64,000 nucleotides of DNA from positions 837 through 64,836 of the forward strand of contig JBLYPS010000008.1 in assembly GCA_048539495.1 (NCBI GenBank), read 5' to 3'. This stretch comes from Dehalococcoidia bacterium. Its GTDB lineage: Bacteria; Chloroflexota; Dehalococcoidia; SZUA-161; SpSt-899. Of the stretch, positions 2,990 through 58,516 are shown in pieces. Positions within the stretch are counted from its first letter, which is position 1, and each line of letters begins with the position of its first letter. The position numbers and the translations under genes were made by a program. The notes beneath the pieces were generated by a model. That model was given only the letters and a program-made list of their open reading frames with translations, did no database searches and was not told the origin of the DNA.

Positions 2990-3215
2990 CTTTCGAGATA
3001 ACTCTTAACCCGAACAAGCCGGAACCAACAAGGCATATTGTCGTTTAAATTCGAAATCCGAAGCACGAAATACTAAACAAATCCCAAATCCCAATGTTCA
3101 AATGTTCAAAACTGCCTCATATTTGGAATTTTGCTATTTGGATTTGTTTAGTGCTTAGAAATTAGGATTTAGGATTTTCCATTTTGCGCAAGACTTTAGA
3201 TTTAAGGGACTACCC
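2990..3215. repeat. composite intergenic repeat (modules 'cccgaacaagccggaaccaa' and 'ttccattttgcgcaagact...agggacta') split by a nested ~147 bp MITE-like palindromic insert at 3031-3177
   Basis: Both modules recur contiguously at 4538-4610. The insert has inverted termini aaatcccaaatcc ... ggatttaggattt. Confidence 0.7.
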
Positions 3216-4526
3216 ATTCATCTCCACATTTACCGGGCAGACCCCACATCTTTGCTCCTGACAGAAGGTCTGGTAGAGATGAATCAATCCCTGCTGGCGT
3301 CGCGCCGAGTATAGCCCCTTTGGCTTCCCCGCACCCCAGAAAAGCTCGCTCAGGTACCGGGTTATCCGATTTTCGCCCAGCCGGGGATAGGCTCTATATA
3401 GCTCCACGACATGCTCACTGAGCTTCGGCTGTGAATCGGTCTCCGCCCAGGCGAGGGAAAATGGCAAAACCACATTCACCGTGATCTCCCGTGCCCGCCC
3501 TCGCCCGATGAGGTCGGGGATCAGAAAGCCGGACTCAATCACGGTTGCGCCTTTCCCCGGATTTGCCCGCCTTACGAGATCGAACACCCCCTTGAGCAAG
3601 CCTTGATCCAGATAGCGGTCGAAGAGATGTCCCGCTGCCAGGAGTCGCCGCGAGGGGAAATTCCTGGGATGTATCCGGAAGAAGTGCCAGTCGGCGTAGC
3701 TCATGGCGTTTTCGGCATTCAAGGAACACCAGATTGCCCCCAGCTCCGATGGCGGCTTCAAACCCCCAAATCTGGACTTCTCCCCGCATTGCGAAGGCAG
3801 CAATCCTGCCCCACCCAGAAGCAGAGCCTGGAGCGCAAGGCTTCTGTTCCCGAGCTCCTGTTCCGCCGCAATACTCGCCAAAACGCGGAGTGGCAGGCGG
3901 CGCGCTAGCTCCTGAAAGGACTTCTTATTCTTCGTATATCCGAGAGCCCCCATCACGCCCTGGTACAGGACCTCAGCCGGCTCATCGAGGATCAAACCCA
4001 CCTCAAAGAAAGCCGACTTCAAATAGAACCGCTCCTCACCACACCGATCCAGGATTTCGCCGATTCTTCCTTCTCCGTACTGACTCCCAACGCTGCGGCA
4101 GGGGGAAAGGAGATCCATCGCTCGGACGGAAAGCTCATCCATTGGGCCATTGAGGTAGTTGTGCAGCGGTAAGGTGGGGGCCAACTCCCCGTTTTCAAGT
4201 TGAGCGGGCTTCCTGGTATCGTCCCACAACACCACCTGGAGAATCACCCCGTTGAAATGCGGATCGAGGTGGTGGCCATGTGCCCTCCAGTCGCCCGACT
4301 TCACATGAAGTTCAACATCGCCCTGTAGTATCTCGTCATCGAGAATGATAATGGCTCCGAGAAAATCGGGGCCGCTATCCCTGTTCTCTATCCCGGGCGA
4401 GCGCACCCTCACCATCCGGCCATCACTCGTAGGAAGGGCGCCCTTCTGCACCCATTGACCCTTCCAGATTCTGGCCAGGAGGCTCTCGGGAACTACGGAT
4501 TTATTCTCTGGATTGATACCGGTCAC
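3210..4526 (-). CDS. DUF2851 family protein
   Basis: 438 aa. The N-terminal region (RIWKGQ...GRMVRVRSPGIENRDSGPDF...HVKSGDWRAHGHH) matches my recollection of the DUF2851 family pattern. Confidence 0.55.
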   Translation of the reverse strand: MTGINPENKSVVPESLLARIWKGQWVQKGALPTSDGRMVRVRSPGIENRDSGPDFLGAIIILDDEILQGDVELHVKSGDWRAHGHHLDPHFNGVILQVVLWDDTRKPAQLENGELAPTLPLHNYLNGPMDELSVRAMDLLSPCRSVGSQYGEGRIGEILDRCGEERFYLKSAFFEVGLILDEPAEVLYQGVMGALGYTKNKKSFQELARRLPLRVLASIAAEQELGNRSLALQALLLGGAGLLPSQCGEKSRFGGLKPPSELGAIWCSLNAENAMSYADWHFFRIHPRNFPSRRLLAAGHLFDRYLDQGLLKGVFDLVRRANPGKGATVIESGFLIPDLIGRGRAREITVNVVLPFSLAWAETDSQPKLSEHVVELYRAYPRLGENRITRYLSELFWGAGKPKGLYSARRQQGLIHLYQTFCQEQRCGVCPVNVEMNG

Positions 4527-4534
4527 AACTCATA

Positions 4535-4720
4535 TCCCCCTAACCCGAACAAGCCGGAACCAAAAAGTTTTCCATTTTGCGCAAGACTTCACTTTTTAGG
4601 GACTAACCCGGACAAGAAAATTGCCTCAATTGCCTTGAATTCAAAGAGTGCCGCAAGAGTTCAAAAATTGCCAAGAGTTCAAAAACTGCCTTAATTCACT
4701 TCCAATGCTTCCTCAAATCA
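4535..4720. repeat. intergenic repeat copy (same modules as 2990-3215, uninterrupted, plus 'gttcaaaaa(c/t)tgcc' direct repeats)
   Basis: Direct sequence identity with 3000-3030 and 3176-3215. The 'caagagttcaaaaattgcc' motif is repeated. Confidence 0.7.
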
Positions 4721-41453: not shown

Positions 41454-41566
41454 ATTGATAATCTATCAAAGGATTTCCCAAGACGTAACAGTTATTGTGA
41501 TATACGGCGTTTTTGCGGTCTAGTTAATTGATAGGCGAACTCAGCCCCCGTGTTGACAATCGTCAC

Positions 41567-41869
41567 ATGACAGGTTGCACTTCATGTGTGATCAAGACAT
41601 TCGCAGACAGGCACACGCAGGAACTGTACGCGACTGGTAGGTCGAAACGGTTCCCGCCGGACATCGCGCGACGGGCGAGGCGGAAGCTTGAGTACATCGA
41701 CTTGGCAACGCGCCTAGATGAACTTAAGGTTCCTCCCGGCAATCGACTCCACCAGCTTGGGCAGCACCGGGAGGGGCAGCACGCCATCTCTATCAACGAC
41801 CAATGGCGCATCTGCTTCCGGTTCGTCGATGGTGATGCCTACGAGGTCGAGGTCACAGACTATCACTGA
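41567..41869 (+). CDS. higB: type II toxin, HigB family (plasmid-maintenance killer protein)
   Basis: VIKTFADRHTQELYATG...FPPDIARRARRKLEYI...RLHQL...WRICFRF is the HigB-like toxin pattern. It sits upstream of an XRE-HTH antitoxin. Confidence 0.75.
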   Translation: MTGCTSCVIKTFADRHTQELYATGRSKRFPPDIARRARRKLEYIDLATRLDELKVPPGNRLHQLGQHREGQHAISINDQWRICFRFVDGDAYEVEVTDYH

Positions 41870-41882
41870 GACGAGGTGTGAC

Positions 41883-42197
41883 ATGAGCATTCCAAACACG
41901 GGGAACAGGGAGGTCCGGCCCGCCCATCCCGGCGAGATGCTTCGGGAGGATTTCCTGCCCGACTACGGGCTCACGGTCTCCGGTCTTGCTGAGGCGTTGG
42001 GCGTCTCGCGTCAGACGGTCAACGAGCTGCTCCGCGAGCGTCGGGCGGTGAGTCCGGAAATGGCGCTCCGGCTCTCGCGGCTGTTCAGAAACTCTCCCGA
42101 GTTCTGGCTCAACGCGCAACGCGCGGTGGACCTATGGGACGCAGCCCAGACCGTCGGGACCGACGTCGAGCGCATCAAGCCCTTGATCGTCGCATAA
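41883..42197 (+). CDS. higA: HigA-family antitoxin (XRE-type HTH)
   Basis: HPGEMLREDFLPDYGLTVSGLAEALGVSRQTVNELL is the HigA HTH signature. It starts 14 nt after the higB stop. Confidence 0.8.
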   Translation: MSIPNTGNREVRPAHPGEMLREDFLPDYGLTVSGLAEALGVSRQTVNELLRERRAVSPEMALRLSRLFRNSPEFWLNAQRAVDLWDAAQTVGTDVERIKPLIVA

Positions 42198-42246: not shown

Positions 42247-43122
42247 GTGAACCGGAGCGATAGGCGACGCTGCGTCAAGGAGAGCGGACTCATGAACCTA
42301 GACATCGTCTTGATCGACCTGCTGACTCCAGAGGGAGTCCTCACCACGTACAAGATCTGTCCGAAGGGCGGACCAAGGGGGCTCACGATCAATCGGTACC
42401 GGGACGTTTTCCCTGAACGGTTCAGTGACGACGACCTAGAGATTGGAGGTACGCGACTGTACAGCGCATCCAGTTGCTCGATAGAAAAACTCGCCTCTCG
42501 GTTGAGGTCGTTCCGCCTGGACGAGTGCAGTCACTCCTTTTCGTTTCAATTCGAGCACATGGGGGTTCCGGTTGGGCCATCGAGGGAAGCGCACGGCGGC
42601 ATGTACAACTTCGTGTTACCACCCGGTTGGCGCTGCCGCGAGCTGTATGTCTCAGATCCTTACGATCGGAAGTACGATGATGTCAGGAAGAAGAAGCACT
42701 TCCAGCACTCAGTGCTCTGGGATCCCGAGTGCTCCACACAACTCGTCGAGATGCTGCTCCGATCAAGTCGTGGCTCGTCCTCCTTCATCGTCGCGGGCTC
42801 GGCATCGCTTGTGGCAGGCGATCCGCCCGACACGCCGTACGTTGCTTCACAGGAAAGTAGCTGGCCCAGTTCGCGAGTATCGGACACATATCTGCTCGAC
42901 TCAGAGGGCCGTAATCGCCTCGCAGACGAATTGGCGGAGAAGTCCGACTGGCTTGAGCTCAAGCCCAACATCTTTGGCTTGGGCGTCAATCCCAACCAAA
43001 TGATAAAATACGCCATTCGCCATTTCCAGGAGAAGGTCAGACCACGCGAACATGCAGGTAGGGCATCGCCTAACACCGGGTTGCAGCCGACGTTGCTCCG
43101 CTACGCTCCGCGACGCGGCTGA
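42247..43122 (+). CDS. hypothetical protein (no recognisable domain)
   Basis: 291 aa, hydrophilic and Cys-rich, GC-rich codon usage consistent with the neighbouring island genes. An alternative start is the Met at 42292. Confidence 0.45.
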   Translation: MNRSDRRRCVKESGLMNLDIVLIDLLTPEGVLTTYKICPKGGPRGLTINRYRDVFPERFSDDDLEIGGTRLYSASSCSIEKLASRLRSFRLDECSHSFSFQFEHMGVPVGPSREAHGGMYNFVLPPGWRCRELYVSDPYDRKYDDVRKKKHFQHSVLWDPECSTQLVEMLLRSSRGSSSFIVAGSASLVAGDPPDTPYVASQESSWPSSRVSDTYLLDSEGRNRLADELAEKSDWLELKPNIFGLGVNPNQMIKYAIRHFQEKVRPREHAGRASPNTGLQPTLLRYAPRRG

Positions 43123-44186: not shown

Positions 44187-44420
44187 ATGCGCTTTGAGAT
44201 TATCAGTGAAATCATACACGTCGAAACCATCGCCGTCGGCTCGTCCATTCGCGAGATTACACGTTTACGAAAACGTTACGGCAAGGGGCGCTGGCGGAAG
44301 ATGAAAGGCGTGGCGACCATCCAGTTAGCGAATGGCAAAGTTCGGTTGACAGAAATCCACTGGTACGAAGCGCACGGAATTGGCAAGAAGGAGTACAAGC
44401 GGAAACGCTATTTGGACTAA
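44187..44420 (+). CDS. small basic hypothetical protein
   Basis: 77 aa, Lys/Arg-rich C-terminus (HWYEAHGIGKKEYKRKRYLD). Forms a tight pair with the next small ORF, a TA-like arrangement. Confidence 0.35.
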   Translation: MRFEIISEIIHVETIAVGSSIREITRLRKRYGKGRWRKMKGVATIQLANGKVRLTEIHWYEAHGIGKKEYKRKRYLD

Positions 44421-44431
44421 GGTTAAGGGCA

Positions 44432-44689
44432 ATGAAATCCGTCAAATCACTTCCGGGCAAGTTTGCAATCTGTGTCAATAACGCCGACTATCCCGTCTCG
44501 CTGGAACTGCACAAGCTCTATGGCCTGGTGCCAGATGAGGAGGCCGAGCGAGATGGCGACTTGCGCGTGATTGACGAAAGCGGCGAAGACTATTTGTATC
44601 CAGCGGAGTATTTTCTGGTGGTGGAATTCCCTCAGACGATACAACAGGCATTACAAACGTCTTTCGCACGCACAGTGCAACCCGCGTAA
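44432..44689 (+). CDS. small acidic hypothetical protein
   Basis: 85 aa, acidic (DEEAERDGDLRVIDESGEDYLY). Starts 12 nt after the previous ORF. Confidence 0.35.
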   Translation: MKSVKSLPGKFAICVNNADYPVSLELHKLYGLVPDEEAERDGDLRVIDESGEDYLYPAEYFLVVEFPQTIQQALQTSFARTVQPA

Positions 44690-44784
44690 GCGTCAAATCC
44701 AGGCACGCGGTCCAACACGGCATGCGGCCGACCGCTTCGCGCTGCGCCCTCGCCGCGGCTGATGCCCACGTTAGGCGACGCGGT

Positions 44785-46230
44785 ATGAACCCTTTCTTGC
44801 CAAGCCCTATGATGGAATCGATCTCCGACTATACTCTTGAAAGATTCTCGCGAGCGGTCACGCTCACAGTTCTCGAACTGGACGTAGACCGCCATGCACT
44901 CGTTCCCGCCTACCTCATAGCCAACCTCATGTCGCCAGCTTTGTGGAGATGGCGGGAAGAGCGCAGAGCCTGCGCTCGGAATGGGCAGCTCTTGGGCGCG
45001 AACCGCCGTCTCAAGGAGCTCGAAAGACACTTCCACCGATACACATTCACGCACTTCGCAGACCAGCCAGGCGGCGATCCGTGGGGCTTACTCAGCTTCT
45101 CAGACGAAGAACAGCGTCTCGGGAGCGAGTACGTTCGACATGCGCGGCAGGAGTACGACGAGACGCTTAAGGGCCTGCTGAGGCAGAACCCTGATAGCCA
45201 GTTCGGGCAGATCGTCAAGCAGGATTACTATGAGCGTGGATACTTCCCACGGCTGAGGAATGAGACCCTCGAGGTAATGGACGCGTATTCCACCATTTCG
45301 GACGACGGCAGAGGCTCGGGCAAGTGTGCCGCACTCGCAATGCTTTGGGCAGCCGCGCTTATGGTTTGGGGCCGCTTCCCTCCTGAGAGAATCGCACTGA
45401 TAGGGAACCGTGCCCACGTATTCGTGTTCCTCGATGAGGATAATGGTCACCTCTTCAACAACACAAAGTGGTTCAGTCGGACAAGAATCCACAACGCGTC
45501 GGAGCTCTCCGAGTTCGTGAAGATGGTTACGACCGGCACGAGCACAACGTTCTTCTACTGCCCATCCCTCGGAATGTGCCAGTGTTCAGAGAGGAAATCG
45601 ACGATCCCGTGCGATCACTTAGTGGAGTTGTACCGCCATGTTCGAGACTTCCTCTCGGTTCCCCTGAGGCACCCGGACCCGGCGAACATCTGCTTCGAGG
45701 GAGTATCTGATCCCATTCCGCTCCCATCCGCGTACACCTCAGCCCAGGACTATCGTGATGCCGTCTGGGCCTTGGCGGATCGTCGCCCGGAGTCGGTCTA
45801 CGACTTGGCTCGGTATGCATACCGGTCGCTGGATGTGCCTGCGCCCGCGGTATACGCTCGGGCCGCTCTTCGTGACTATCATGCCCAGGACGCAGCGCGG
45901 CGCATCGGAGATCTCGAAGGGGCCATAGAGTTCGTAAGGAGGATACCCGGACGCCGTTCCGTATTCGACAGCAGAGAACGTATCCAGCTGCCTGACGAGA
46001 CGTTGGCCTTCCGAACAGGCGATGACAGCGACAGGGCACTGCTTCTGTTCACCTTACTTTCGCACTCCTGTGGGCAGTCATCTCGGGTCGGGGTCGCCTT
46101 GACCGATGATGCCAGCTATGTGCGTTTCGAGGGGCTCTGGGTAAATGCTGGTACGCTGTCGGTCGAGTCCCGGACGCCTGAAGGAGTGACCTCTGTGTTC
46201 AACGAGATGGGGAGTTCAGTCGTTTCGTGA
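44785..46230 (+). CDS. large hypothetical protein with a possible transglutaminase-like/papain-like Cys-His-Asp core
   Basis: A GSGKCAALAMLWAAALMVWG segment is followed about 30 aa later by HVFVFLDEDNGHLFNNTKW. That spacing suggests a transglutaminase-like cysteine protease core, but this is uncertain. 482 aa from the Met at 44785; the ORF track starts at 44722. Confidence 0.4.
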   Translation: MNPFLPSPMMESISDYTLERFSRAVTLTVLELDVDRHALVPAYLIANLMSPALWRWREERRACARNGQLLGANRRLKELERHFHRYTFTHFADQPGGDPWGLLSFSDEEQRLGSEYVRHARQEYDETLKGLLRQNPDSQFGQIVKQDYYERGYFPRLRNETLEVMDAYSTISDDGRGSGKCAALAMLWAAALMVWGRFPPERIALIGNRAHVFVFLDEDNGHLFNNTKWFSRTRIHNASELSEFVKMVTTGTSTTFFYCPSLGMCQCSERKSTIPCDHLVELYRHVRDFLSVPLRHPDPANICFEGVSDPIPLPSAYTSAQDYRDAVWALADRRPESVYDLARYAYRSLDVPAPAVYARAALRDYHAQDAARRIGDLEGAIEFVRRIPGRRSVFDSRERIQLPDETLAFRTGDDSDRALLLFTLLSHSCGQSSRVGVALTDDASYVRFEGLWVNAGTLSVESRTPEGVTSVFNEMGSSVVS

Positions 46231-46554
46231 CAACAGGATCGCCTAACAAGTCGCTGTTATGCAAAAAGTGGCTCTCCTCAAATAAGTGGGGATTTTTGCC
46301 CCGGCCCGCCACGCTCAATCAAGACGCAGAGCGGTGATTATCAAAGAAGGGTAACTACAAGCTCGACAAATGAGCTTCTGAATCGTGCCGCTGAGACTCT
46401 CAGTAAAATCATGTGGGGGATACCTTACCCCACTAAGAGCCTCCAAAAAGTCAAGGTTTTTGCGGCTCATATAGCTCACCTGGCAAAGGGAATTGTTGCA
46501 TTTCTCGGCACAGTGTTCTATATTGTTAGCAGTGGGTTAGCCTAAGTCGTTGAG

Positions 46555-46983
46555 TTGATTAATTTATGGGTCAGACAAGATTTCGGAATTAGAAAGAGGA
46601 GAAAGAAGTTGAAACAAAAGTGTTCCAATCCAAAAATGTCAGAGATTTTGTTAGAGTATGCCTCTGATTATATCGGCATGGGAGTAACTTTAGAGGAAAA
46701 AGGGCACTACCTGAATTCAGCTATTATGGCATGGAATCTTTCCCTGTTCCCAGAAGGCGAAAGAGAAAAACAAAAGCAGGCAACTCTAAAAAGGCTCGAA
46801 GAATTGACTCCTGGTTCCAAGAATCTGGAGATTCTAAAACACAATTTGGCTATCTTGATCAAGAAAAAACTAACGCAATTCCCTGAGATTAAGGAGCTAA
46901 TCCTCAACGCAGAAATCAGCATTGTTGACGGCAAAGAGTGTCTATATGTTGCTTCTACTGATTTGCAGGAAACCAATGATTAG
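46555..46983 (+). CDS. hypothetical protein in a very AT-rich patch
   Basis: Lys-rich with low-GC codon usage, unlike its neighbours. The start may be the Met at 46636. Confidence 0.35.
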   Translation: MINLWVRQDFGIRKRRKKLKQKCSNPKMSEILLEYASDYIGMGVTLEEKGHYLNSAIMAWNLSLFPEGEREKQKQATLKRLEELTPGSKNLEILKHNLAILIKKKLTQFPEIKELILNAEISIVDGKECLYVASTDLQETND

Positions 46984-47245
46984 CACAGGGCCAATGGTGA
47001 CATCATCCTGATTTTGGAGAGTCTTATCAAGCGTAGTCCTCAGAGCGTGGGAAAGCCTACTACAAGGGGAAGGACTTGACGGGAGTACGTAGCTCGCAAA
47101 GAGCCTGCCCTGAGCGAAGCCGAAGGGAAACTTATGCCGGACATAGCAGGACCGGAGCAACATAAGCCAAACTCCCTGCGGGGAATAGCAAACAGGTCGG
47201 GAGCCGGCAACGGTTACGACCTGCGCGGAACCGAGTACAACCGAG

Positions 47246-47365: not shown

Positions 47366-47587
47366 ATGAGCGCTATAGAGATGTTACAAACGGGGGAATT
47401 TGTGGTGGATGCCCACGGGAATAGGAGAGCTGTGTTGCTCGATTACAAAGTTTGGGAAGAACTGTTGACCTTGCTTGAAGATTGGGAAGATGCGGAGGAC
47501 ATTCGTCGTCTCCACGAGACCGGAGAGGAGGCAATCCCGTGGGAACAAGCGAAAGCAGAGCTACGAGCTAAGGGGATAGATGTATAG
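47366..47587 (+). CDS. type II antitoxin (Phd/RelB-like partner of the RelE/ParE toxin)
   Basis: 73 aa, acidic, 8 nt overlap with the downstream RelE/ParE toxin. Confidence 0.6.
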   Translation: MSAIEMLQTGEFVVDAHGNRRAVLLDYKVWEELLTLLEDWEDAEDIRRLHETGEEAIPWEQAKAELRAKGIDV

Positions 47588-47831
47588 CGTCTGCATCCTG
47601 CGGGGGGCCATCAAGGACATCGCCGACTTACCTAAGGAGTATGCCCGTTTGGCCAGCGAGCATATTGACCGCTTGCGGGAGAACCCTCGTCCGCCAGGTG
47701 CAAAGAAACTCCGAGGGACGACAGATTACAGTTTACGGGTGGGGGTGTATCGCATTCTCTACGACATAGATGATAGCCCTCGCATTGTCACCGTCTATCG
47801 AGTGAAACATCGGCGCGAAGCCTATCGCTGA
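47580..47831 (+). CDS. RelE/ParE-family type II toxin
   Basis: LPKEYARLASEHIDRLRENPRPPGAKKLRGTTDYSLRVGVYRILYDIDDSPRIVTVYRVKHRREAY is the RelE/ParE pattern. Confidence 0.8.
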   Translation: MYSVCILRGAIKDIADLPKEYARLASEHIDRLRENPRPPGAKKLRGTTDYSLRVGVYRILYDIDDSPRIVTVYRVKHRREAYR

Positions 47832-48161: not shown

Positions 48162-50501
48162 ATGACAAACGCGTCGGCTGACTATCTTGCCCACTCAGCA
48201 AACAAATATGGCAAGGTTGATCTCCTTCGTTCTCACCTCCAAAACGTTGCCAACCGCGCAGCCGAGTATGCCGAGACCTTCGGCGCTTCGGAGGAAGCCA
48301 GGCTGGCGGGTCTGCTGCACGATCTGGGGAAATATGGTGACTTGTTCCAGAGGCGACTTGAGGGGAAGGAAAGTGGGATTGATCACTGGTCGTCCGGAGC
48401 GTGGGAGGCTCTCACTAAACATCAGCAACGCGGAATTGCCATAGCCCTGGCAATCCAGGGACACCATGTCGGACTTCAGCATGCATCTGGAGATGCTCTA
48501 AGGGGCATTAATCCTGAGAAGCTGCAGGGATATCATTCGCTGGGCTTGCGACTCTCAGAGCCCGATACCAAGAAGCTGCTGCAACGGCTTGGTACGGACG
48601 GTCTGAACTTATCCCCAATCTCTTCCTCTCTTTATCCGGGGGTAAAGGAATCCTTCGAACAGAAAGAGACCGCTGCTGCCATGATGGATGTGCGGATGTT
48701 ATTCTCCACTTTGGTGGACGCTGACTTCATAGAAACTGAGGCCCATTTCCAGGAGGACTCGGATGGCAGTAAAGCTTACCGTGAGACAGGGCCTCTATTG
48801 AAACCCCAACAGACCCTGTTGCATCTCCTGGCCTACTTAAAAGAACTGGCAGTCGGTTCCGAAGCCGCCCCGCACGTGAATCAATTGCGCACACATCTAT
48901 TGCAGGCTTGTTTGGCCGCGGGAGACTTGCCGCAGGGGATTTTCACTCTTACGGCCCCGACAGGAACAGGAAAGACATTTAGCATGCTGGCCTTTGGCCT
49001 GCAACACGCGGTGAAACATGATCTTGAACGGATCATTATGGTGATTCCCTACCTGAGCATTATTGAGCAGACGGTGAGGGAGTATCGGAAAGCCCTCAAA
49101 AAATGCTTTGGTTCAGAGAGTATGCAATTCATTTTGGAGAATCACAGCCTTGCAGGCACCCGCGCCGGTGATGGGAGCGATAGCGGAAAAGAAGCCGACA
49201 TGGAGAACGAATCTCGCCGACGGGCACAGTTGCTCGCAGAGAACTGGGATGCCCCTATTGTTGTCACCACCAGTGTTCAATTGCTTGAGTCCCTGTTCGC
49301 CAATCGACCCTCGGCGTGTCGCAAACTGCATCGTCTGGCCAAGAGCGTCATTTTCTTTGATGAAGTGCAGACGCTTCCCGTATCGCTTGCTATCCCCACC
49401 CTGGCCACACTCTCCCGCCTGGCAGAACGATATGGCGCAACAGTGGTCTTCTCCACGGCCACACAGCCCGCTTTTGTGCATCTGAATGATCATGTAAGGG
49501 AATACTGCACTGGCGGTTGGGGAGCATCCGAAATTGTCCCCCCCCGGCTGAAGCTTTTCAGCAGGGCCAGGCGAACTTGTGTCGAATGGCCCGAGAATCT
49601 CAACCAGACGCTATCCTGGACAGCACTGGCCGAGCAGATTTCTCAGCACGAACGAAAGCAAGTCCTTTGCATTGTCAACCTGAAGACACACGCGCTCTTT
49701 CTGCATCAAAAGCTGGAGGAGCTCGGTGTTGAAGGGCTCTTTCATCTTTCCACCAATATGTGTCCGGCTCATCGACAGGATGCCCTGGAGCAAGTACGCC
49801 AGCAGCTGGATAAGAAACACCCATGTCATCTAATCTCCACTCAGTGTGTCGAGGCAGGGGTGGATGTGGATTTTCCGGTTGTCTATCGGGCATTCGGCCC
49901 ACTTGACGCAATTGCTCAAGCAGCCGGGCGCTGCAACCGTAATGGCCACGCCGAAACGGGCATCGTTTACGTGTTTTTACCGGAAGAAGAGAGATACCCC
50001 GACGGGGCATATGAGCAGGCTGCCGGCATCACGCGCTTTCTCCTGCAGAAGCATGGTAAGGCTGGGATGGATATCCACGACCCGGCGCTCTTTGCCGAGT
50101 ACTATCGGGAGCTTTATGACCTCATGCGCCCGGAGAACCAGAAAAAAGAACTTGCCGACGCTATCAAAGGACAGCACTTCATTGAGGTGGCAAGCCTGTA
50201 TCGAGTTATTGCCCGGGATGCCATAAATGTTCTCGTTCCCTACGATATTGATGCCTTTGCCAAACTCGGAGGTGAGGTTCGCCAAACCGGATTGAACGGC
50301 AAATGGATCGCCAAAGCGCGCCCCCACACCATAGGCTTGTTCAGGCCAAAGCTGTATGACCCGGTCAGTTCGTATCTTGACCGCATTCCCATTGGGAAGG
50401 GCAACTACTCAGAGGAATGGTATATCTATCTGAATGCCGAACATTATGATCAAACAAAAGGGCTTGTCCTGCCAACTTCAATGGAATTGCTGATTGGTTG
50501 A
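48162..50501 (+). CDS. cas3: CRISPR-associated helicase/nuclease Cas3 (HD domain plus SF2 helicase)
   Basis: N-terminal HD motifs (LLHDLGKYGDLFQ; H...D), Walker A APTGTGKT, a DEVQ box (FFDEVQ), and a helicase C-terminal domain. It is the first gene of a type I-C operon. Confidence 0.9.
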   Translation: MTNASADYLAHSANKYGKVDLLRSHLQNVANRAAEYAETFGASEEARLAGLLHDLGKYGDLFQRRLEGKESGIDHWSSGAWEALTKHQQRGIAIALAIQGHHVGLQHASGDALRGINPEKLQGYHSLGLRLSEPDTKKLLQRLGTDGLNLSPISSSLYPGVKESFEQKETAAAMMDVRMLFSTLVDADFIETEAHFQEDSDGSKAYRETGPLLKPQQTLLHLLAYLKELAVGSEAAPHVNQLRTHLLQACLAAGDLPQGIFTLTAPTGTGKTFSMLAFGLQHAVKHDLERIIMVIPYLSIIEQTVREYRKALKKCFGSESMQFILENHSLAGTRAGDGSDSGKEADMENESRRRAQLLAENWDAPIVVTTSVQLLESLFANRPSACRKLHRLAKSVIFFDEVQTLPVSLAIPTLATLSRLAERYGATVVFSTATQPAFVHLNDHVREYCTGGWGASEIVPPRLKLFSRARRTCVEWPENLNQTLSWTALAEQISQHERKQVLCIVNLKTHALFLHQKLEELGVEGLFHLSTNMCPAHRQDALEQVRQQLDKKHPCHLISTQCVEAGVDVDFPVVYRAFGPLDAIAQAAGRCNRNGHAETGIVYVFLPEEERYPDGAYEQAAGITRFLLQKHGKAGMDIHDPALFAEYYRELYDLMRPENQKKELADAIKGQHFIEVASLYRVIARDAINVLVPYDIDAFAKLGGEVRQTGLNGKWIAKARPHTIGLFRPKLYDPVSSYLDRIPIGKGNYSEEWYIYLNAEHYDQTKGLVLPTSMELLIG

Positions 50502-50615
50502 TGTCGGAGCGTGATGCCAGACTTTAGCTTCGCCAAAGCGACTCTCAGGGGCGCGCTACGAAAATCCAGGTTGGAGGAGGTGCTATGTATAAATAACCGA
50601 AGTTGAAACCAGGGT

Positions 50616-51395
50616 TTGCCAGTCAGAAAGGAGAAAGGAGGTTGTGTGAAACCGAAAGATCAGGTGCTGGAAGTGTGGGGCGATTTCGCCTGCTTTACCA
50701 GACCGGAACTCAAGGTGGAGCGATTCAGCTATCCGGTTATCACGCCCTCGGCCGCGCGAGGCATCTACGATGCTATCTACTGTAAACCCAACAGAGACCC
50801 CACGAAGGCTGAATTCCGCTGGCAGGTAACCAGGATAGAAATCCTGTCACCACCGCAATACATTGCCTTGCGTCGCAACGAAGTTAAGGACAAGGCCCCA
50901 GCGAAGGCTATCGTTACTTGGATGAGCGGCAAAAAACCACCGGAGCCCCTCTGGGCTGATGGCACCTCGGACATGCTGGGCACGGACCAGAAAGGACGCA
51001 CGCAGCGGCAGACGATGGCTCTGAAAGGCGTTCGGTATCATCTACACGCAGAGGTCCGACCCTGGCCTGGGTTCGAAGATCGGCTACAAGCAATAGAAAA
51101 TTGCTTCCGCCGTCGCGCTGCCACCGGCAAGTGCATCTACCAGCCTTACTTTGGCTGCCGCGAGTTCCCCGCCTATTTCAAGTTGGTCGAGCCGGATGCC
51201 CCTTCCGTGGAACGGGTACAGGATGACAGGGATATCGGTTGGATGCTCTACGACGTTTTCGATCTTTCCCAACCGGGGGGCTGTGATGATGAACCTTGCA
51301 TTAGCCTCTTTCGGGCAAAAGTCACCGAAGGGATACTGAAAGTGCCAGAATATGAAAGCGAGGCGGTGCTCAAGGGTGTGAGGAGGGAACGCTGA
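50616..51395 (+). CDS. cas5: Cas5c/Cas5d (type I-C)
   Basis: LEVWGDFACFTRPELKVERFSYPVITPSAARGIYDAIYCKP is the Cas5d signature. The start may be the GTG at about 50645. Confidence 0.85.
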   Translation: MPVRKEKGGCVKPKDQVLEVWGDFACFTRPELKVERFSYPVITPSAARGIYDAIYCKPNRDPTKAEFRWQVTRIEILSPPQYIALRRNEVKDKAPAKAIVTWMSGKKPPEPLWADGTSDMLGTDQKGRTQRQTMALKGVRYHLHAEVRPWPGFEDRLQAIENCFRRRAATGKCIYQPYFGCREFPAYFKLVEPDAPSVERVQDDRDIGWMLYDVFDLSQPGGCDDEPCISLFRAKVTEGILKVPEYESEAVLKGVRRER

Positions 51396-53281
51396 TGCTG
51401 GATATACTTGTAAGATACGCACATGATCGTGGGCTGGAGCCAGAACCGGGCTTTAAGGCCAAGGACGTCCGCTGGGCTATTGTCTGCGACGCTGATAGTC
51501 GATTTCTCAATGTTCTCCAACTGGGCGATACAAGTCAGAAGAACAATCCGGGACAAACGTTTCATAAATGCCCGGACCTCAGCCAACCAGAGATGGTGGC
51601 AGGTGGAGAGACGAAAAGCCACTTCCTGGTGGAGACCGCCGAAGTTGTGGCACTCTACGGAAAGAATGCCGTTAATCCCAAAGTCCGCGAACGCCACCAG
51701 TACTTCGTGAAGCTACATCAGGATGCGGGAACGTCCATGCCTGAGCTGGCCAGGCTGGCAGAGCAACTTGGCCAGCCGGAAACCATCGGTGCGATACGAT
51801 CACGATTCGAATCTCAGAAAGTCAAGCCCTCCGAAAAGGTGACATTTCGAATCGGAAGTGCCTATCCTGTAGAGTCTGATGCATGGCATGACTGGTGGCG
51901 TGAGTTCAGAAAAGGGCTGGCAGGAGGCAAATCCGAGGGAAAAGAAGGAGCTGCAAAGAAATCCGCACGGAACAAAGACGCGAGCGCCTTGATGCGCTGT
52001 TTTATCACCGGGGAATTGGTCGAACCGGTACCCACGCACTTGAAGATAGAGAAGCTCGCCGATGTCGGCGGCCAGCGCAGTGGCGACGCCCTGATCTGTT
52101 TTGACAAAGAGGCATTTCGTTCATATCGGTTGGAGCAATCTGCCAATGCAGCGATCTCGGAGCAATCCATGGCATCCTATTGCGCTGCGCTTAATCACCT
52201 CATAAAAAGGAGCGGTCGGCGTTTGGCCGGAGCCAAGGTTGTTCACTGGTTCAAGAGAAAGGATGTGCCAGAAGAAGACGATCCTATGGCATGGCTGGAG
52301 GAAGGAGCGGGGCAACAGGAGCTGAATGCCCAACGCCGGGCTGAAGAACTGCTTCAGAGCATCCAGACTGGAAAGCGCCCTGATCTGGCCAATAACTACT
52401 TCTACGCACTCACACTCTCCGGGGCAGCGGGGCGAGTGATGGTGCGTGACTGGATGGAGGGGCGATTTGAGGAGTTGGTGACAAACATCTGCGCCTGGTT
52501 TGATGATCTGGAGATTGTAAACTTATCCGGCGTGAAAAGTGCCAGGACCCCAGGCATTGAGCGTGTGATCACATGTCTTTTGCCGCTGAAAAAGAAAAAT
52601 CAGGAGTACAAGGACTGGATCAAACCGATTGGAGCAGAACGTCTGAGCCTTTGGCAGGCAGCTATTCGTGGACGTAAGACACCGATTTCTCACAGCGCAG
52701 TGTCGCGTGCAGTATTGTTGAATCGAGAGTTTTGCTTATCAGCAAAACTGGAGGAGGCTCTCCAAAGAAACGATGACCGAGCAAACACTCTGTCTTTGCT
52801 CTATGCCCGCATGGGCCTGATGAAGGCGTATCACCTTCGCAAAAACAGGGAAGGAGGAAGAGAAACGATGACATCGGAGTTAAAACCATACTTGAATGAG
52901 GATCACCCTCACCCCGCTTACCACTGCGGGAGGCTCATGGCCGTACTGGCCGCCCTCCAGCGCGCCGCACTGGGGGATATCGGTGCAGGTGTGGTCCAGC
53001 GTTATTATGCTGCTGCCAGCAGCACGCCGGCGCTGGTGTTAGGACGCCTGACTCGCACCAGCCAGTTCCATCTGAATAAACTGGAGCAGGGGCTGGCCTA
53101 TTGGTACGAGAGCAAAATTGCCCAGATCTGGAGCCGCATTAAGGACGGTATTCCTGGAACATTGAGTCTGGAAGAACAGAGTCTTTTTGCCCTGGGCTAC
53201 TACCAGCAGATTGCTCACATGAGAACAAAACGGTCGGATAAGTCCGAAAATCAACCCAAAGAGGAGGACAACAATGAGTAA
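51395..53281 (+). CDS. cas8c: Cas8c/Csd1 (type I-C large subunit)
   Basis: 628 aa, between cas5c and cas7c. Its position and size fit Csd1, and it overlaps the neighbouring genes by a few nt. Confidence 0.75.
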
Positions 53282-54290
53282 CCCAATCACAAATCGCTAC
53301 GAGTTTCTCTATCTGTTTGACTGCGAAAACGGCAATCCCAACGGTGATCCCGATGCCGGCAATGCCCCGCGCATCGATCCTCAGGACATGTGTGGGCTGG
53401 TCTCCGACGTTGCCCTGAAGCGGCGGGTGCGTAATTATATCCAGCTCGCCAGGGGCAATCAGATGCCCAACGCCATCTTCATCGAGCACGCGACCAATCT
53501 GAATCGCCCCATCGTCCGCGCTCACGAAGAGACCGAAGGTGGACTTAGCGAAACCCAAAAAGGTGCAGGCAAGAAAAAGGTCGAGTTGGCCCGAGAGTGG
53601 ATGTGCAAGAACTTCTATGACGTGCGTACTTTTGGGGCGGTGATGAGCACTGGCCCAAACGCCGGCCAGGTGCGTGGCCCGGTGCAGTTCGCTTTTGCCC
53701 GCTCCCTCGATCCTGTTCTACCTCTCGATATCTCCATTACACGGATGGCGATAGCGGAAAACGTAAGGGGGGCAAAATCAAGTGAAGACTATGCAAAATG
53801 GGAAGCTGAGCAACCTGAAGACTCGCTCCGCACGATGGGCCGCAAAGCCATGATTCCCTATGGGTTGTACGTAGCCAAGGGCTTTATCAGCGCCCATCTT
53901 GCCGAGGGAACTGGCTTTTCTGAAGGTGATCTGGACTTGTTTTGGAACGCATTGCTTGGAATGTACGAACATGACCGCTCGGCGAGTAAGGGCCTCATGT
54001 CGGTGCGCGAGCCGATCTTCGTCTTCCAGCACGTGGGGACCGACAGCGATGAAAGGCAGCGAGCCCGGCAATCCAAACTTGGCTGTGCGCCCGCACATAA
54101 GCTTTTTGATCTCGTGGAGATTCAAAAGCGTGAGGGAGTCGATGTCCCTCGGACCTTTGCAAATTACCGGATTATATTCCACAAGAGTCGATTGCCGAAT
54201 GGTGTACGGGCCGGCTTCATTGTCTCAGGTGATGGCGGAAAAGCAGATATCCGCTGGGACGAGCCTCCTGACTCAATACTGGAAGGGTGA
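53274..54290 (+). CDS. cas7: Cas7c/Csd2 (type I-C backbone subunit)
   Basis: [30 protein letters not shown]...[15 protein letters not shown] is the Csd2 N-terminal signature. Confidence 0.9.
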
Positions 54291-54523
54291 GTGGAATAAC
54301 AGGCGGGTAATACTGTCAAATGACGTCCACTATTTTTGACTGCCTCGACCTGGGTAGAGATTATACCCCTCGCCCTAGGGCCGTCAAGGGTAAAGGCTTT
54401 GCCCGATCTGAAGCTCGCCCTTGACAGCCCGGCGGGCTCGGGATAACGTTTCCAGTAACAAGTCGAGGCAAGTTTGCATCTTTTTGGAGTAGCAGTCATT
54501 TGACAGAATAGGTAATCGTAGTT

Positions 54524-55204
54524 ATGTATAGTGAAGATGAACTCCTGCCCATCTCCGCCCTTCAGCACTTGCTCTTCTGTGAGCGCCGGGCGGCTCTGGT
54601 TCACATTGAGGGTCTGTGGGATGAAAATCCTTTCACCGTAGAGGGACGCTACCTGCATGAGCGCACGCACGAGATAGGTACCGAGGTTCGCGGTGACCTG
54701 CGAATCGCACGCGGCCTGCGTCTGCGCTCGCTCCGGTTGGGACTTACGGGAAAGGCAGATGTGGTAGAGTTCTGCCGTCTGCCGGAAGGTCGGGCAGGGG
54801 TATCTTTCGTGAATGTGAGCGGCCTATGGAATCCTATTCCTGTGGAATACAAGCGAGGCAGACTCCGCCATGAAAGGGGTTACGAAGTCCAGCTCTGCGC
54901 TCAGGCCATATGCCTGGAGGAAATGATGAACGTCGAGGTAGGAGCTGGGGCAATTTACTATGGCAAGACTCGCCGCCGGCTTGAAATCACCTTTGACGAG
55001 AAGCTCCGCCGGGAAACGGAAAGAGCCGCTGAACGTCTACATGAACTATTGGCATCTGAAGGAACGCCCGGGGCCGTTCATGGGCCGAAATGCAAGAGCT
55101 GTTCACTGCTCGATCTCTGTATGCCCGGCCTCACCGGCAAGCGACGGAATGTACGGGGATATCTGTCAAAGGCCATCGCCGAGGCAGGAGAGGATAAATT
55201 ATGA
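54524..55204 (+). CDS. cas4: Cas4 (RecB-like nuclease, Fe-S)
   Basis: ISALQHLLFCERRAALVHIEGLWDENPFTVEGRYLHER, a DxK-type core, and a C-terminal Cys cluster (CKSCSLLDLC). Confidence 0.85.
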   Translation: MYSEDELLPISALQHLLFCERRAALVHIEGLWDENPFTVEGRYLHERTHEIGTEVRGDLRIARGLRLRSLRLGLTGKADVVEFCRLPEGRAGVSFVNVSGLWNPIPVEYKRGRLRHERGYEVQLCAQAICLEEMMNVEVGAGAIYYGKTRRRLEITFDEKLRRETERAAERLHELLASEGTPGAVHGPKCKSCSLLDLCMPGLTGKRRNVRGYLSKAIAEAGEDKL

Positions 55205-56232
55205 AACGCTTGCTCAATACGCTGTATGTTACTACTCAGGGCTCCTATCTGGCGCGGGAGGGCGAGACGGTGCTGGTCCGGGTTGGCGGAGAAACGAAGC
55301 TCCGCCTGCCGGTCCATACTCTGGGCAGCATTGTATGTTTCGGTCAGGTTTCCTGCAGTCCGCCGCTGATGGGACTGTGCGCCGAGCGCAACGTGGCGAT
55401 CTCCTTCCTCAGCGAGCGAGGGAGGTTTTTCGCCCGGGTCGAGGGACCCGTCTCGGGCAATGTGTTGTTGCGACGCGAGCAGTACCGCCGAGCGGACGAC
55501 CCCGAAGTCTCAGCCGAACTCGCCCGCGCGATGGTCATTGCCAAGATCGCCAATTGCCGGACGGTTCTTCTCAGAGCGGCTCGTGACCGGCCCGAGGACG
55601 AGGGTGCTGGGAAGCTATCAGAGGCAGCCGATCGTCTGGCACAACATCTCAAGAGTCTGGAGAACCCGGTGCCGCTTGATACTGTGCGTGGCAAGGAAGG
55701 GGATGCGGCACGGCGGTACTTTGATGTTTTTGACCACCTGATCACCAGCCAAAAGGAGAGTTTCTTTTTCCACGAGCGCAGCCGCCGTCCGCCGCTGGAT
55801 AATATGAATGCGCTTCTTTCATTCCTGTATACCCTGCTGGTTCATGACGTTGCCGCGGCGCTTGAGGGAGTGGGGCTCGATCCGGCGGTGGGATATCTGC
55901 ATCGGGATCGACCGGGACGCCCGGGACTTGCGCTCGATATAATGGAGGAATTCAGGCCTTATCTGGCAGACCGCCTGGCGCTGTCGCTCGTGAACCGGCA
56001 ACAGATCAAGGGAAAGGGGTTTCGGAGAACGGAAACGGGAGCCGTGCTCATGGATGATGCCACCCGTAAAGAAGTGCTTGTAGCTTATCAAAAGCGGAAA
56101 CAGGAGGAAATTCAGCACCCTTTCTTAGGAGAAAAGGTTGAAGTAGGACTCCTGCCACATGTGCAGGCACTGCTTCTGGCACGGCACTTACGGGGAGACC
56201 TGAATGGGTATCCACCGTTTTTCTGGAAATAG
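55201..56232 (+). CDS. cas1: Cas1 integrase
   Basis: LNTLYVTTQGSYLAREGETVLV... with the Cas1 metal-binding region. 343 aa; start overlaps the cas4 stop. Confidence 0.9.
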   Translation: MKRLLNTLYVTTQGSYLAREGETVLVRVGGETKLRLPVHTLGSIVCFGQVSCSPPLMGLCAERNVAISFLSERGRFFARVEGPVSGNVLLRREQYRRADDPEVSAELARAMVIAKIANCRTVLLRAARDRPEDEGAGKLSEAADRLAQHLKSLENPVPLDTVRGKEGDAARRYFDVFDHLITSQKESFFFHERSRRPPLDNMNALLSFLYTLLVHDVAAALEGVGLDPAVGYLHRDRPGRPGLALDIMEEFRPYLADRLALSLVNRQQIKGKGFRRTETGAVLMDDATRKEVLVAYQKRKQEEIQHPFLGEKVEVGLLPHVQALLLARHLRGDLNGYPPFFWK

Positions 56233-56760: not shown

Positions 56761-58516
56761 GTCGCCCCCCACGCGGGGGCGTGGATTGAAACACGTTTTG
56801 GGAATCTCGAATCGACGGACTCGATGAGTCGCCCCCCACGCGGGGGCGTGGATTGAAACATTTCATCGAGGGCTTCACGGCTCAGCATAGGATGTCGCCC
56901 CCCACGCGGGGGCGTGGATTGAAACTTAACATATCTATCTTTGTTGTCCCACTCTTCGAGTCGCCCCCCACGCGGGGGCGTGGATTGAAACCTGTACGTT
57001 AGTACGTTTTCAAGAAGAAATATGGCGTCGCCCCCCACGCGGGGGCGTGGATTGAAACCGTTTCACCTCGAACCAGAACTTTTCGAGTTGAGTCGCCCCC
57101 CACGCGGGGGCGTGGATTGAAACTATTAAACCTGAGGAAACTTTCCTCGATTGTATGTCGCCCCCCACGCGGGGGCGTGGATTGAAACTTTGAACTCGAT
57201 GCCAGACGCCTTGCCTGGTCATGTCGCCCCCCACGCGGGGGCGTGGATTGAAACTCCCTTGACACCGACCTAAACCATCCATAAGTCATGTCGCCCCCCA
57301 CGCGGGGGCGTGGATTGAAACATTGACACTTTCAGGATGAGCATTCCATTTCATAGTCGCCCCCCACGCGGGGGCGTGGATTGAAACGATTACATCTGCG
57401 GGAGAAGCGTCTCGCGATTGAAGTCGCCCCCCACGCGGGGGCGTGGATTGAAACGGATGAGCCGCACAACAAGGATAGCATTTATTACGTCGCCCCCCAC
57501 GCGGGGGCGTGGATTGAAACACTGAGGCCACTGCTACCAGAACGGCCGAAGCGGGTCGCCCCCCACGCGGGGGCGTGGATTGAAACAATCGGCCTGCCTG
57601 CCATAACATCCGCTTCGCTTAGTCGCCCCCCACGCGGGGGCGTGGATTGAAACAGGCGAGACACCGGCCACGGCAAATTGCGTTGCTGGTCGCCCCCCAC
57701 GCGGGGGCGTGGATTGAAACTCTGCCGATCCATTGCTGCCGTAACAGTATCCCAGTCGCCCCCCACGCGGGGGCGTGGATTGAAACAAGTCGACTGGGTA
57801 TGTGTTTATGAGCTGCAACGGTCGCCCCCCACGCGGGGGCGTGGATTGAAACTCGAAATAATTGAGCTTGTGCATTTGCAGTCCCTGTCGCCCCCCACGC
57901 GGGGGCGTGGATTGAAACCGATGTCCAACAACCTCTAAAAGTTCCCCTTGGGAAGTCGCCCCCCACGCGGGGGCGTGGATTGAAACTTGATATATTTTAC
58001 CTTTCGGATATTCTCAAGTCGCCCCCCACGCGGGGGCGTGGATTGAAACCACCTCCTGAAACCCAGCTGTAGACCAGATCTCGTCGCCCCCCACGCGGGG
58101 GCGTGGATTGAAACTAGGATAACCTCGGCAAGGCGGAAGCCATCAGTAGTCGCCCCCCACGCGGGGGCGTGGATTGAAACCGCTTGGATACCTACCATGT
58201 AAAACCACACTTCGGTCGCCCCCCACGCGGGGGCGTGGATTGAAACAATGTAGGTGAAGATGTTCCCGGGTGAATCGGTTGTTAGGTCGCCCCCCACGCG
58301 GGGGCGTGGATTGAAACGGTAGAAAAGCATGATGCGCTTACGGAGGCAGTTAGTCGCCCCCCACGCGGGGGCGTGGATTGAAACACAAGTGCTTGGGGAT
58401 GTGATATAATGGAGAAAAGTCGCCCCCCACGCGGGGGCGTGGATTGAAACAGAGACGTCGCTGCTGCGGACCTTCACGGTGTAGGTCACCCCCCACGCGG
58501 GGGCGTGGATTGAAAC
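56761..58516 (+). CRISPR. CRISPR array, 27 repeats of 32 bp (GTCGCCCCCCACGCGGGGGCGTGGATTGAAAC) with 26 unique spacers of 31-39 bp
   Basis: Repeat starts: 56761, 56828, 56894, 56960, 57027, 57092, 57157, 57223, 57290, 57356, 57423, 57489, 57555, 57622, 57689, 57755, 57821, 57887, 57955, 58018, 58083, 58149, 58215, 58286, 58353, 58419, 58485. The last repeat has a G>A change (gtcAcc...). The repeat ends in ATTGAAAC, the type I-C 5'-handle, so transcription is on the + strand with the leader on the cas2 side. A degenerate repeat-like sequence sits in the leader at 56703-56745. Confidence 0.95.

Follow-up and report, generated by a model that had tools for sequence, protein, structure and literature searches.

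A conserved Cys/His protein family encoded beside efflux and metal-resistance genes, and its member in an island-like stretch of a Dehalococcoidia genome

The 64,000-nucleotide stretch of Dehalococcoidia bacterium contig JBLYPS010000008.1 analyzed here (hereafter "the window") carries, at positions 44,785 to 46,230, a gene for a 481-amino-acid protein that lies among TIR, toxin-antitoxin and CRISPR-Cas genes. What does this protein do, and does it work together with the genes that surround it? An earlier note, made from the letters of the DNA alone, had proposed a transglutaminase-like or papain-like Cys-His-Asp core and a role as an effector or maturase in defence. Our own reading, to which we assign a probability of roughly 0.5, is that the protein is a cytoplasmic thiol enzyme, carried by a mobile gene, that is accessory to toxic-metal or drug stress. 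The features referred to below are collected in Table 1, and residue numbers are counted from the Met at 44785 (the 481-amino-acid form).

A large protein family with a conserved Cys/His pair

The window protein had no match at E <= 1 in Pfam, NCBIfam or PADLOC, which agrees with the earlier note in leaving the bulk of the protein unassigned. Sequence searches of the PDB, run with the single protein, with a full-family profile and with one profile each for the central and the C-terminal domain, returned nothing relevant. A word-indexed search recovered 158 homologues from Zixibacteria, Acidobacteriota and Phycisphaerae, with identities of 46-95% and lengths of mostly about 467-490 amino acids; the few that are named are annotated as "hypothetical protein", and all of them lack Pfam domains. 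An exhaustive profile search extended the family to at least 384 clusters (50% identity) at E <= 1e-3, with 69 at E <= 1e-30, and a survey limited to one genome per species gave 46 loci among approximately 186,000 species genomes. Closest among these species-level loci are those of Candidatus Brocadia and Scalindua (about 58-60% identity), and further ones were found in Candidatus Kapaibacterium, Phycisphaerales, Pyrinomonadaceae and other Acidobacteriota, Verrucomicrobiales and Anaerolineae, so that homologues overall are distributed over Planctomycetota, Acidobacteriota, Verrucomicrobiota, Zixibacteria and others. We found no description of the family in the literature searched. Judged from its sequences, this is a large, conserved and undescribed protein family. 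A look at giant or fused homologues (P0141, P0156 and P0251) as a source of further domains gave nothing informative beyond an alpha/beta hydrolase fusion.

The conservation is of two kinds. Close homologues, in alignments of 28 and of 121 sequences (46-95% identity), share dozens of invariant positions along the full length; G-K-C, W188, G-N-x-x-H, N-N-T and the C265/C267 pair are invariant or nearly so, and the C-terminal motif P-D-E ... T-G-x-D-R-D-R-A-L-L-L is conserved as well. The CxC pair is invariant in the 28-sequence alignment, nearly invariant in the 121-sequence alignment and missing from the divergent branch. Among 62 divergent members, which are 19-46% identical to the window protein, the invariant columns are reduced to Gly101, Cys181 and His211, and in a 35-sequence alignment of the central domain that includes a subgroup of 580-600 amino acids, the Cys and the His are the sole invariant columns. 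The motif described in the earlier note is thus real: the translation of 45313-45471, GSGKCAALAMLWAAALMVWGRFPPERIALIGNRAHVFVFLDEDNGHLFNNTKW, is identical to the strings quoted there, and its Cys and His, 30 residues apart, are the family-wide invariant pair. The two residues carry weight because they are conserved, since the spacing alone would be meaningless. The earlier note had made its proposal depend on conservation of the Cys among homologues, and Cys181 is kept in every one of the 62 divergent members.

Predicted structure and candidate active site

An AlphaFold2 model built from the 121-sequence alignment reached a mean predicted local distance difference test score (pLDDT) of 93.4 and a predicted template modelling score of 0.93, and divides the protein into four regions (Table 1). 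The N-terminal, mainly helical domain bears the family motifs LANLMSPxLW, GGDPWGLL (which holds the invariant Gly101) and FPRL[KR]NE. In the central domain, Cys181 opens a helix (residues 181-194) that is followed by strands at 203-208, 212-216 and 222-225; His211 directly precedes the second of these strands, and Asn225 closes the third. With the Cys at a helix N-terminus and the His at the start of a strand, the modelled domain has the arrangement that is expected of transglutaminase-like or papain-like enzymes. In the model, the C-terminal domain repeats this helix and three-strand pattern with the same 30-residue spacing: its helix (414-429) is opened by Asp414 (46024-46026) and its strands lie at 435-439, 444-448 (opened by Ser444) and 451-454.

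Relation to transglutaminase-like and papain-like folds

When the full model was compared with the PDB by Foldseek, no match reached E <= 0.001. The best matches that could be interpreted were all transglutaminase-like or papain-like: the top match was LapG (PDB 4fgp, 4fgo and 4u65; E 0.011-0.04, probability 0.99-1.0, about 180 aligned columns), and the others were CPR-C4 protease, PNGase, menin, vasohibin, XPC, RavJ and the structural-genomics "putative cysteine proteases" 3isr and 3kd4. Several axonemal doublet-microtubule chains, whose identity is not stated, are also in the list. A Foldseek comparison with viral structures (BFVD) gave nothing significant. Because the interpretable best matches of the full model share one fold group, they point to a transglutaminase-like core somewhere in the protein.

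We then asked where this core lies. The search for Pfam Transglut_core that the earlier note had suggested turned up empty for the window protein and for 61 of the 62 divergent relatives, and the Pfam scan of these relatives yielded scattered sub-threshold matches only, including Transglut_core in the remaining one (E 0.014). The weak matches of P0256 (residues 472-531, Transglut_core, E 0.0056, 17.4 bits with a cut-off of 23 bits) and P0251 (residues 733-770, CEP76 peptidase-like, E 0.054) fall on the C-terminal domain. Profile-profile comparison by hhalign with a profile of 120 genuine PF01841 proteins was not significant for either domain: the central domain aligned over 18 columns, covering the Cys helix only (P 0.06), and the alignment of the C-terminal domain, 71 columns long, placed Asp414 opposite the catalytic Cys (P 0.12), both in the expected register. 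Compared with each other as a test of internal duplication, the two domains gave P 0.013 with Cys181 on Asp414, a value that we do not count as proof. Most likely, it is the C-terminal, catalytically dead domain that forms the recognizable transglutaminase-like core. For the central Cys/His domain, the topology in the model is right, and this domain may be a diverged duplicate of such a core.

Another explanation is an inert scaffold, in which the two transglutaminase-like cores would serve for binding only and the Cys and His would be structural, and it is true that the C-terminal core clearly lacks catalytic residues and that one distant member has Ser for Cys. Nevertheless, Cys and His are two of the three residues that stay invariant at about 20% identity, which is hard to explain by structure alone, and we hold an inert scaffold to be highly improbable.

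Gene neighbourhoods of the homologues

To learn what the family is associated with, we inspected approximately 70 loci of homologues for recurrent neighbours (the 46 species-level loci, the distant branch and others). Of the 46 species-level loci, 19 have a gene for a P1B ATPase (YHS/HMBD), CDF, RND, MerC or MerR protein within 3 kb of the homologue, with gaps down to 6 nucleotides, and these 19 come from Brocadia, Acidobacteriota, Phycisphaerales and Anaerolineae; neighbour annotations in the close branch were confirmed on cluster representatives. In one acidobacterial locus (L036), for example, the order is RND, P1B ATPase, the 6-nucleotide gap, homologue and DUF4198, and in another locus (L017) it is MerR, ATPase, methyltransferase, homologue and two DUF4198 genes. 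The ATPase gene lies 110 nucleotides upstream of the homologue in Brocadia (L011) and is convergent with it at 60 nucleotides in Phycisphaerales (L021), and in Anaerolineae (L052) two ATPase genes are found upstream and a MerR gene downstream. Two Pyrinomonadaceae loci (L040 and L044) have the order merR, small HMA-like open reading frame (ORF), MerA/glutathione-reductase-like flavoprotein, merC and homologue. In seven Pyrinomonadaceae loci (L037-L042 and L051; for example L037:7665-9593) the homologue itself carries an additional C-terminal GDCCVxC domain (a match to NF041374 that passes the curated cut-off, E 1.6e-27), a natural fusion that ties the family to thiophilic metals.

The linkage is not confined to metal pumps. 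In three Verrucomicrobiales loci a MATE pump is encoded 58-280 nucleotides downstream of the homologue. In a distant branch (about 30% identity to the window protein), represented by Pseudomonadota and Actinobacteria metagenome bins, a gene for a DHA2-family (EmrB-like) MFS efflux protein lies 0-5 nucleotides away in 7 of 11 informative loci, co-directional or convergent.

These neighbours bear on a second explanation, in which the protein has no chemistry of its own. Cys181 and His211, together with the CxC pair of the close subfamily, might bind Cu(I), Hg(II), Zn or Cd and make the protein a cytoplasmic metal sensor, buffer or chaperone for the pumps. Neighbouring P1B ATPases, MerR, MerC and HMA proteins, the fusion to the Cys-rich GDCCVxC domain, and four Cys/His residues conserved in the close subfamily all accord with such a function. 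The divergent branch, however, lacks the CxC pair and keeps the Cys and His only, and two ligands make a poor site; that branch also pairs with drug-type DHA2 pumps rather than metal pumps, and catalytic pairs are classically built in just this way, with the Cys at the N-terminal end of a helix and the His where a strand begins. On balance we regard metal binding as rather unlikely, but as an explanation that deserves some weight.

Regulatory genes are a second kind of neighbour. In a Phycisphaerales prophage, the homologue and an XRE regulator form a two-gene insert between portal and large terminase, in which the XRE-type helix-turn-helix gene overlaps the 3' end of the homologue by 13 nucleotides, and MerR genes lie 69-72 nucleotides upstream of the homologue in several Pyrinomonadaceae loci. 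Such pairs bring to mind the protease-repressor pairs of mobile elements, and the protein could be a regulatory protease that, on a stress signal, cleaves an XRE- or MerR-type factor or the cytoplasmic domain of a transporter. No regulator is conserved across the family, however, and many loci do not have an adjacent one, including the window, in which no regulator adjoins the gene; we consider this explanation improbable.

The family also appears to move. Identity of about 50% across phyla, the patchy presence (46 of approximately 186,000 species) and the varied settings together indicate horizontal movement of the gene as a single unit. Some homologue loci sit in ordinary housekeeping surroundings.

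Single loci offered further observations. An "uncultured bacterium" metagenome-assembled genome (L020:277-1710 and 3165-4598) has two full-length copies about 1.5 kb apart beside a P1B ATPase gene. On a 478-kb contig (L004:1-21473) the homologue is one of a long series of small, unrelated genes on a single strand, including those for acetyltransferases, lipocalin, YCII, GYD, DUF302 and arginase, in a layout that resembles a cassette array. For this series, and for one-strand runs of small genes in the window, integron cassettes were considered as a conjectural explanation. In the distant branch, one locus (L057:10211-11581) has a faint match to circularly permuted ATP-grasp (CP_ATPgrasp_2) beyond the MFS pump, and in another (L059:8428-9102) a polyamine aminopropyltransferase-like gene overlaps the 3' end of the homologue; these extra genes may hint at small-molecule or peptide chemistry. 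An apparent fusion of 1276 amino acids in Brocadia (L010:983-4813) was set aside as a probable read-through into a separate multihaem (CxxCH-rich) lipoprotein-like gene.

Proposed function and mechanism

We return to the reading that the protein is a mobile, cytoplasmic thiol enzyme accessory to toxic-metal or drug stress. By our own reading of the N-terminus, in which no signal peptide or membrane segment is visible, the protein is probably soluble and cytoplasmic. The central alpha/beta domain would be its working part, with Cys181 and His211 as a thiol-imidazole pair in which the Cys is activated by the His. The Cys would attack an amide or thioester bond of the substrate to give an acyl-enzyme, which would be resolved by water or by an acceptor; in the close subfamily, Asn225 or Asn226 probably orients the His. 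The C-terminal domain would be a second copy of the core without the Cys (Asp414 in its place) and the His, and is probably a binding module. The substrate would be cytoplasmic and tied to the cargo of the pumps, such as a conjugate of a thiol with a metal or a xenobiotic, or else a damaged protein, and selection on the enzyme would be linked to toxic thiophilic metals and drugs. Because four or five unrelated pump families are involved, a specific partnership with one pump is disfavoured, and an enzyme that deals with what the toxicant causes in the cytoplasm is favoured.

A bolder proposal would make this a new thiol-enzyme family, with a duplicated transglutaminase-like core, that acts upstream of export pumps in the cytoplasm and processes low-molecular-weight thiol conjugates or metal-thiolates (Hg, Cu, Cd, electrophilic drugs) for export by P1B-ATPase, CDF, RND, MATE, DHA2 or other exporters. 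By analogy, the family would then be a bacterial counterpart of phytochelatin synthase or of mycothiol-conjugate amidase. So specific a proposal strikes us as unlikely.

Several observations weigh against the thiol-enzyme reading itself. The first concerns the triad: of the Cys-His-Asp core in the earlier note the Cys and the His stand, being invariant in the 62 divergent members, but the Asp does not, as its place is held here by Asn225 or Asn226, and the third residue is not kept family-wide (Asn225 is Tyr in some divergent members). The Cys itself is replaced by Ser in one distant member, an alpha/beta-hydrolase fusion protein. The second concerns the fold. Excised from the model, residues 135-300 (pLDDT 81) found no transglutaminase-like or papain-like structure above noise by Foldseek, the best match being Josephin at noise level (E 0.95, probability 0.09), and neither sequence nor profile searches tied the Cys/His domain significantly to a known enzyme family. 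The transglutaminase-like or papain-like fold put forward for this motif is supported by the predicted secondary structure and by the PDB matches of the full model, but not by the excised domain or the profile tests; since the excised domain lacks a fold match and the weak Pfam matches fall on the C-terminal domain, the fold class of the Cys/His domain is unproven. The third concerns the neighbours. No pump is encoded near the gene in the window, as is the case in about half of the loci, and metal islands are themselves mobile, so that part of the linkage could be hitch-hiking.

We consider the conservation, the confident model and the linkage to efflux genes to be solid, and the chemistry to be the conjectural part. 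Put differently, catalysis, the fold class of the central domain and the substrate are what we infer here, beside a conservation, a domain layout and gene neighbourhoods that the analysis shows. If the Cys-His pair is catalytic, an unnamed enzyme family is present in several little-studied phyla (anammox Planctomycetota, Phycisphaerae, Acidobacteriota and Verrucomicrobiota), and its recurrent association with export pumps of four or five unrelated classes, and with mercury and copper resistance clusters, would point to a missing cytoplasmic step in the detoxification of metals or xenobiotics.

The gene and its surroundings in the window

An alternative upstream ATG at 44722 would give an ORF of 502 amino acids (44722..46230, plus strand), in which Cys181 and His211 become Cys202 and His232. 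The start at 44785 (MNPFL...) coincides with that of homologue P0001 (95% identity), and conservation within the family sets in some 15 residues later. The G+C content (GC) of the gene region, 0.56-0.58, is ordinary for the window (about 0.55). A terminator-like hairpin with a T-run was found by a consensus scan 45 nucleotides past the stop codon; the scan found one such site compared with 3.7 in shuffles, so this is weak evidence for the hairpin as a terminator.

The surroundings resemble an island of defence or mobile genes. On the upstream side lie groES/groEL (minus strand), which were identified from their translations alone, the HigB/HigA pair, and a gene for a TIR-domain protein preceded by an ORF of 291 amino acids (42247-43122) that had no match in any library scanned. 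The TIR protein matches PADLOC models of TIR-containing Argonaute-associated and SAVED-TIR proteins, and its N-terminal 125 or so amino acids are unmatched. Directly upstream of the gene under study, two small adjacent ORFs (77 and 85 amino acids, 44187-44689) matched no family significantly; together they may form a toxin-antitoxin pair or a similar small module of two genes, and neither recurs beside the homologues. Downstream, GC falls to 0.46 at 46001-47000, which suggests separately acquired DNA; an ORF of 142 amino acids in this stretch (46555-46983) has a sub-threshold match to UpxZ (E 4.5e-4, 20.9 bits with a cut-off of 21.2). The RelB/ParE pair and a complete type I-C CRISPR-Cas locus with two CRISPR arrays follow, and the gap between the arrays overlaps a minus-strand ORF of 184 amino acids (57935-58489).

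Table 1. Features of the gene, of the encoded protein and of its surroundings in the window.
Feature	Position	Strand	Description or basis
HigB/HigA pair	41528-42197		Upstream of the gene; Pfam
TIR-domain protein, 266 amino acids	43154-43954		Upstream of the gene; C-terminal TIR_2, E 2.4e-26
Coding sequence of the protein under study	44785..46230	+	481 amino acids plus stop
N-terminal mainly helical domain, residues 1-170	44785..45294	+	AlphaFold2 secondary structure, alignments
Central alpha/beta Cys/His domain, residues 171-275	45295..45609	+	Candidate catalytic domain; AlphaFold2, alignments
Cys181, in GSGKC	codon 45325-45327	+	Candidate nucleophile; helix N-terminus in the model
His211, in HVFVF	codon 45415-45417	+	Candidate general base; strand start in the model
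Asn225-Asn226	codons 45457-45462	+	Candidate third triad residue; invariant in close subfamily, Tyr/Gly in some distant members
Cys265-x-Cys267 (GMCxC)	45577..45585	+	Conserved in close subfamily only; possible metal ligand or redox pair
Helical linker region, residues 276-395	45610..45969	+	AlphaFold2 secondary structure
C-terminal alpha/beta domain, residues 396-481	45970..46227	+	Motif RIxLPDEtLxFxTGxDRDRALLL; AlphaFold2
Terminator-like hairpin and T-run	46275..46302	+	Consensus scan only
RelB/ParE pair	47366-47831		Downstream of the gene; Pfam
Complete type I-C CRISPR-Cas locus	48162-56232		cas3-cas5-cas8c-cas7-cas4-cas1 (Cas5d, Csd1/Cas8c); downstream; Pfam
Two CRISPR arrays	57027-57787 and 58018-58246		Repeat GTCGCCCCCCACGCGGGGGCGTGGATTGAAAC; downstream of the cas genes

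Does the protein, then, belong to a defence system? In line with the defence role raised in the earlier note, it could be a cysteine protease that serves as an anti-phage effector or maturase; its partners would then be the neighbouring TIR, toxin-antitoxin or type I-C CRISPR-Cas genes. The gene does sit between the TIR gene, the HigB/HigA and RelB/ParE pairs and cas3, and the prophage insert in Phycisphaerales occupies a typical place for accessory genes. These two settings, position in one window and one prophage lineage of seven loci (L001-3, L029, L030, L034 and L048), are the whole basis of a defence role, and the comparative evidence runs the other way: PADLOC gave no match to the protein, no relative was found in the IMG/VR viral contigs scanned, none of the window's neighbours recurs beside homologues in the approximately 70 loci, and no recurrent neighbour cluster there is a known defence protein, the recurrent neighbours being export pumps and metal regulators. 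A defence role did not survive this comparison as more than a quite unlikely alternative, and we think it probable that the gene is functionally separate from the TIR, toxin-antitoxin and CRISPR genes and that its placement beside them is incidental. We note the caution that this carries for the mining of defence islands, in that a conserved gene amid TIR, toxin-antitoxin and CRISPR-Cas genes need not be a defence gene.

Comparison with known systems

We compared the protein with four kinds of known system. Like members of PF01841 (Transglut_core, which includes the bacterial "transglutaminase-like putative cysteine proteases"), it has in the model a Cys at a helix N-terminus, a His about 30 residues on at a strand start and a polar residue about 14 further on in the next strand, and its G-x-C...A-x-L helix motif aligns in register with that of genuine members. 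It differs from them in having no match to the hidden Markov model and no significant profile-profile score, in its motif (H-x-F-x-F rather than H-x-W-x-E, with Asn or a variable third residue rather than Asp), and in its build, which comprises two core-like domains, one of them dead, and large helical regions specific to the family.

The strongest structural match of the full model was to LapG, a calcium-dependent protease of the periplasm with about 190 amino acids, whose substrate is the adhesin LapA and whose partner is LapD. This match may fall on the Cys-less C-terminal domain, and unlike LapG the window protein is multidomain, with 481 amino acids and no N-terminal signal discernible by eye; no LapA- or LapD-type gene was present among the recurrent neighbour clusters or the Pfam-annotated loci.

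Menin and XPC/Rad4 contain catalytically dead transglutaminase-like domains that have been kept as binding modules. Both are among the structural matches of the model, and they resemble its Cys-less C-terminal domain. They are eukaryotic nuclear proteins with unrelated partners, however, and the identity is about 12-21% over about 115-145 columns.

Phytochelatin synthase, a Cys-His enzyme of the papain type, has a Cys-rich C-terminal part that senses metals; its substrates in metal detoxification are complexes of glutathione with metals, and glutathione conjugates. The family resembles it, and thiol-conjugate amidases, by functional analogy only, in that a Cys-His domain occurs here together with metal-resistance neighbourhoods and, in part of the members, with a Cys-rich GDCCVxC tail. 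Unlike this papain-like enzyme (C83), the window protein has no Pfam match, and phytochelatin synthase is not among its 50 best PDB fold matches. We find the parallel suggestive by analogy, especially for the GDCCVxC fusions. Set beside all of these systems, the protein most likely represents a new family within the broad papain/transglutaminase-like group of thiol enzymes, and its architecture, in which a helical N-terminal domain is followed by a Cys/His core, a helical linker and then a dead core, is its own.

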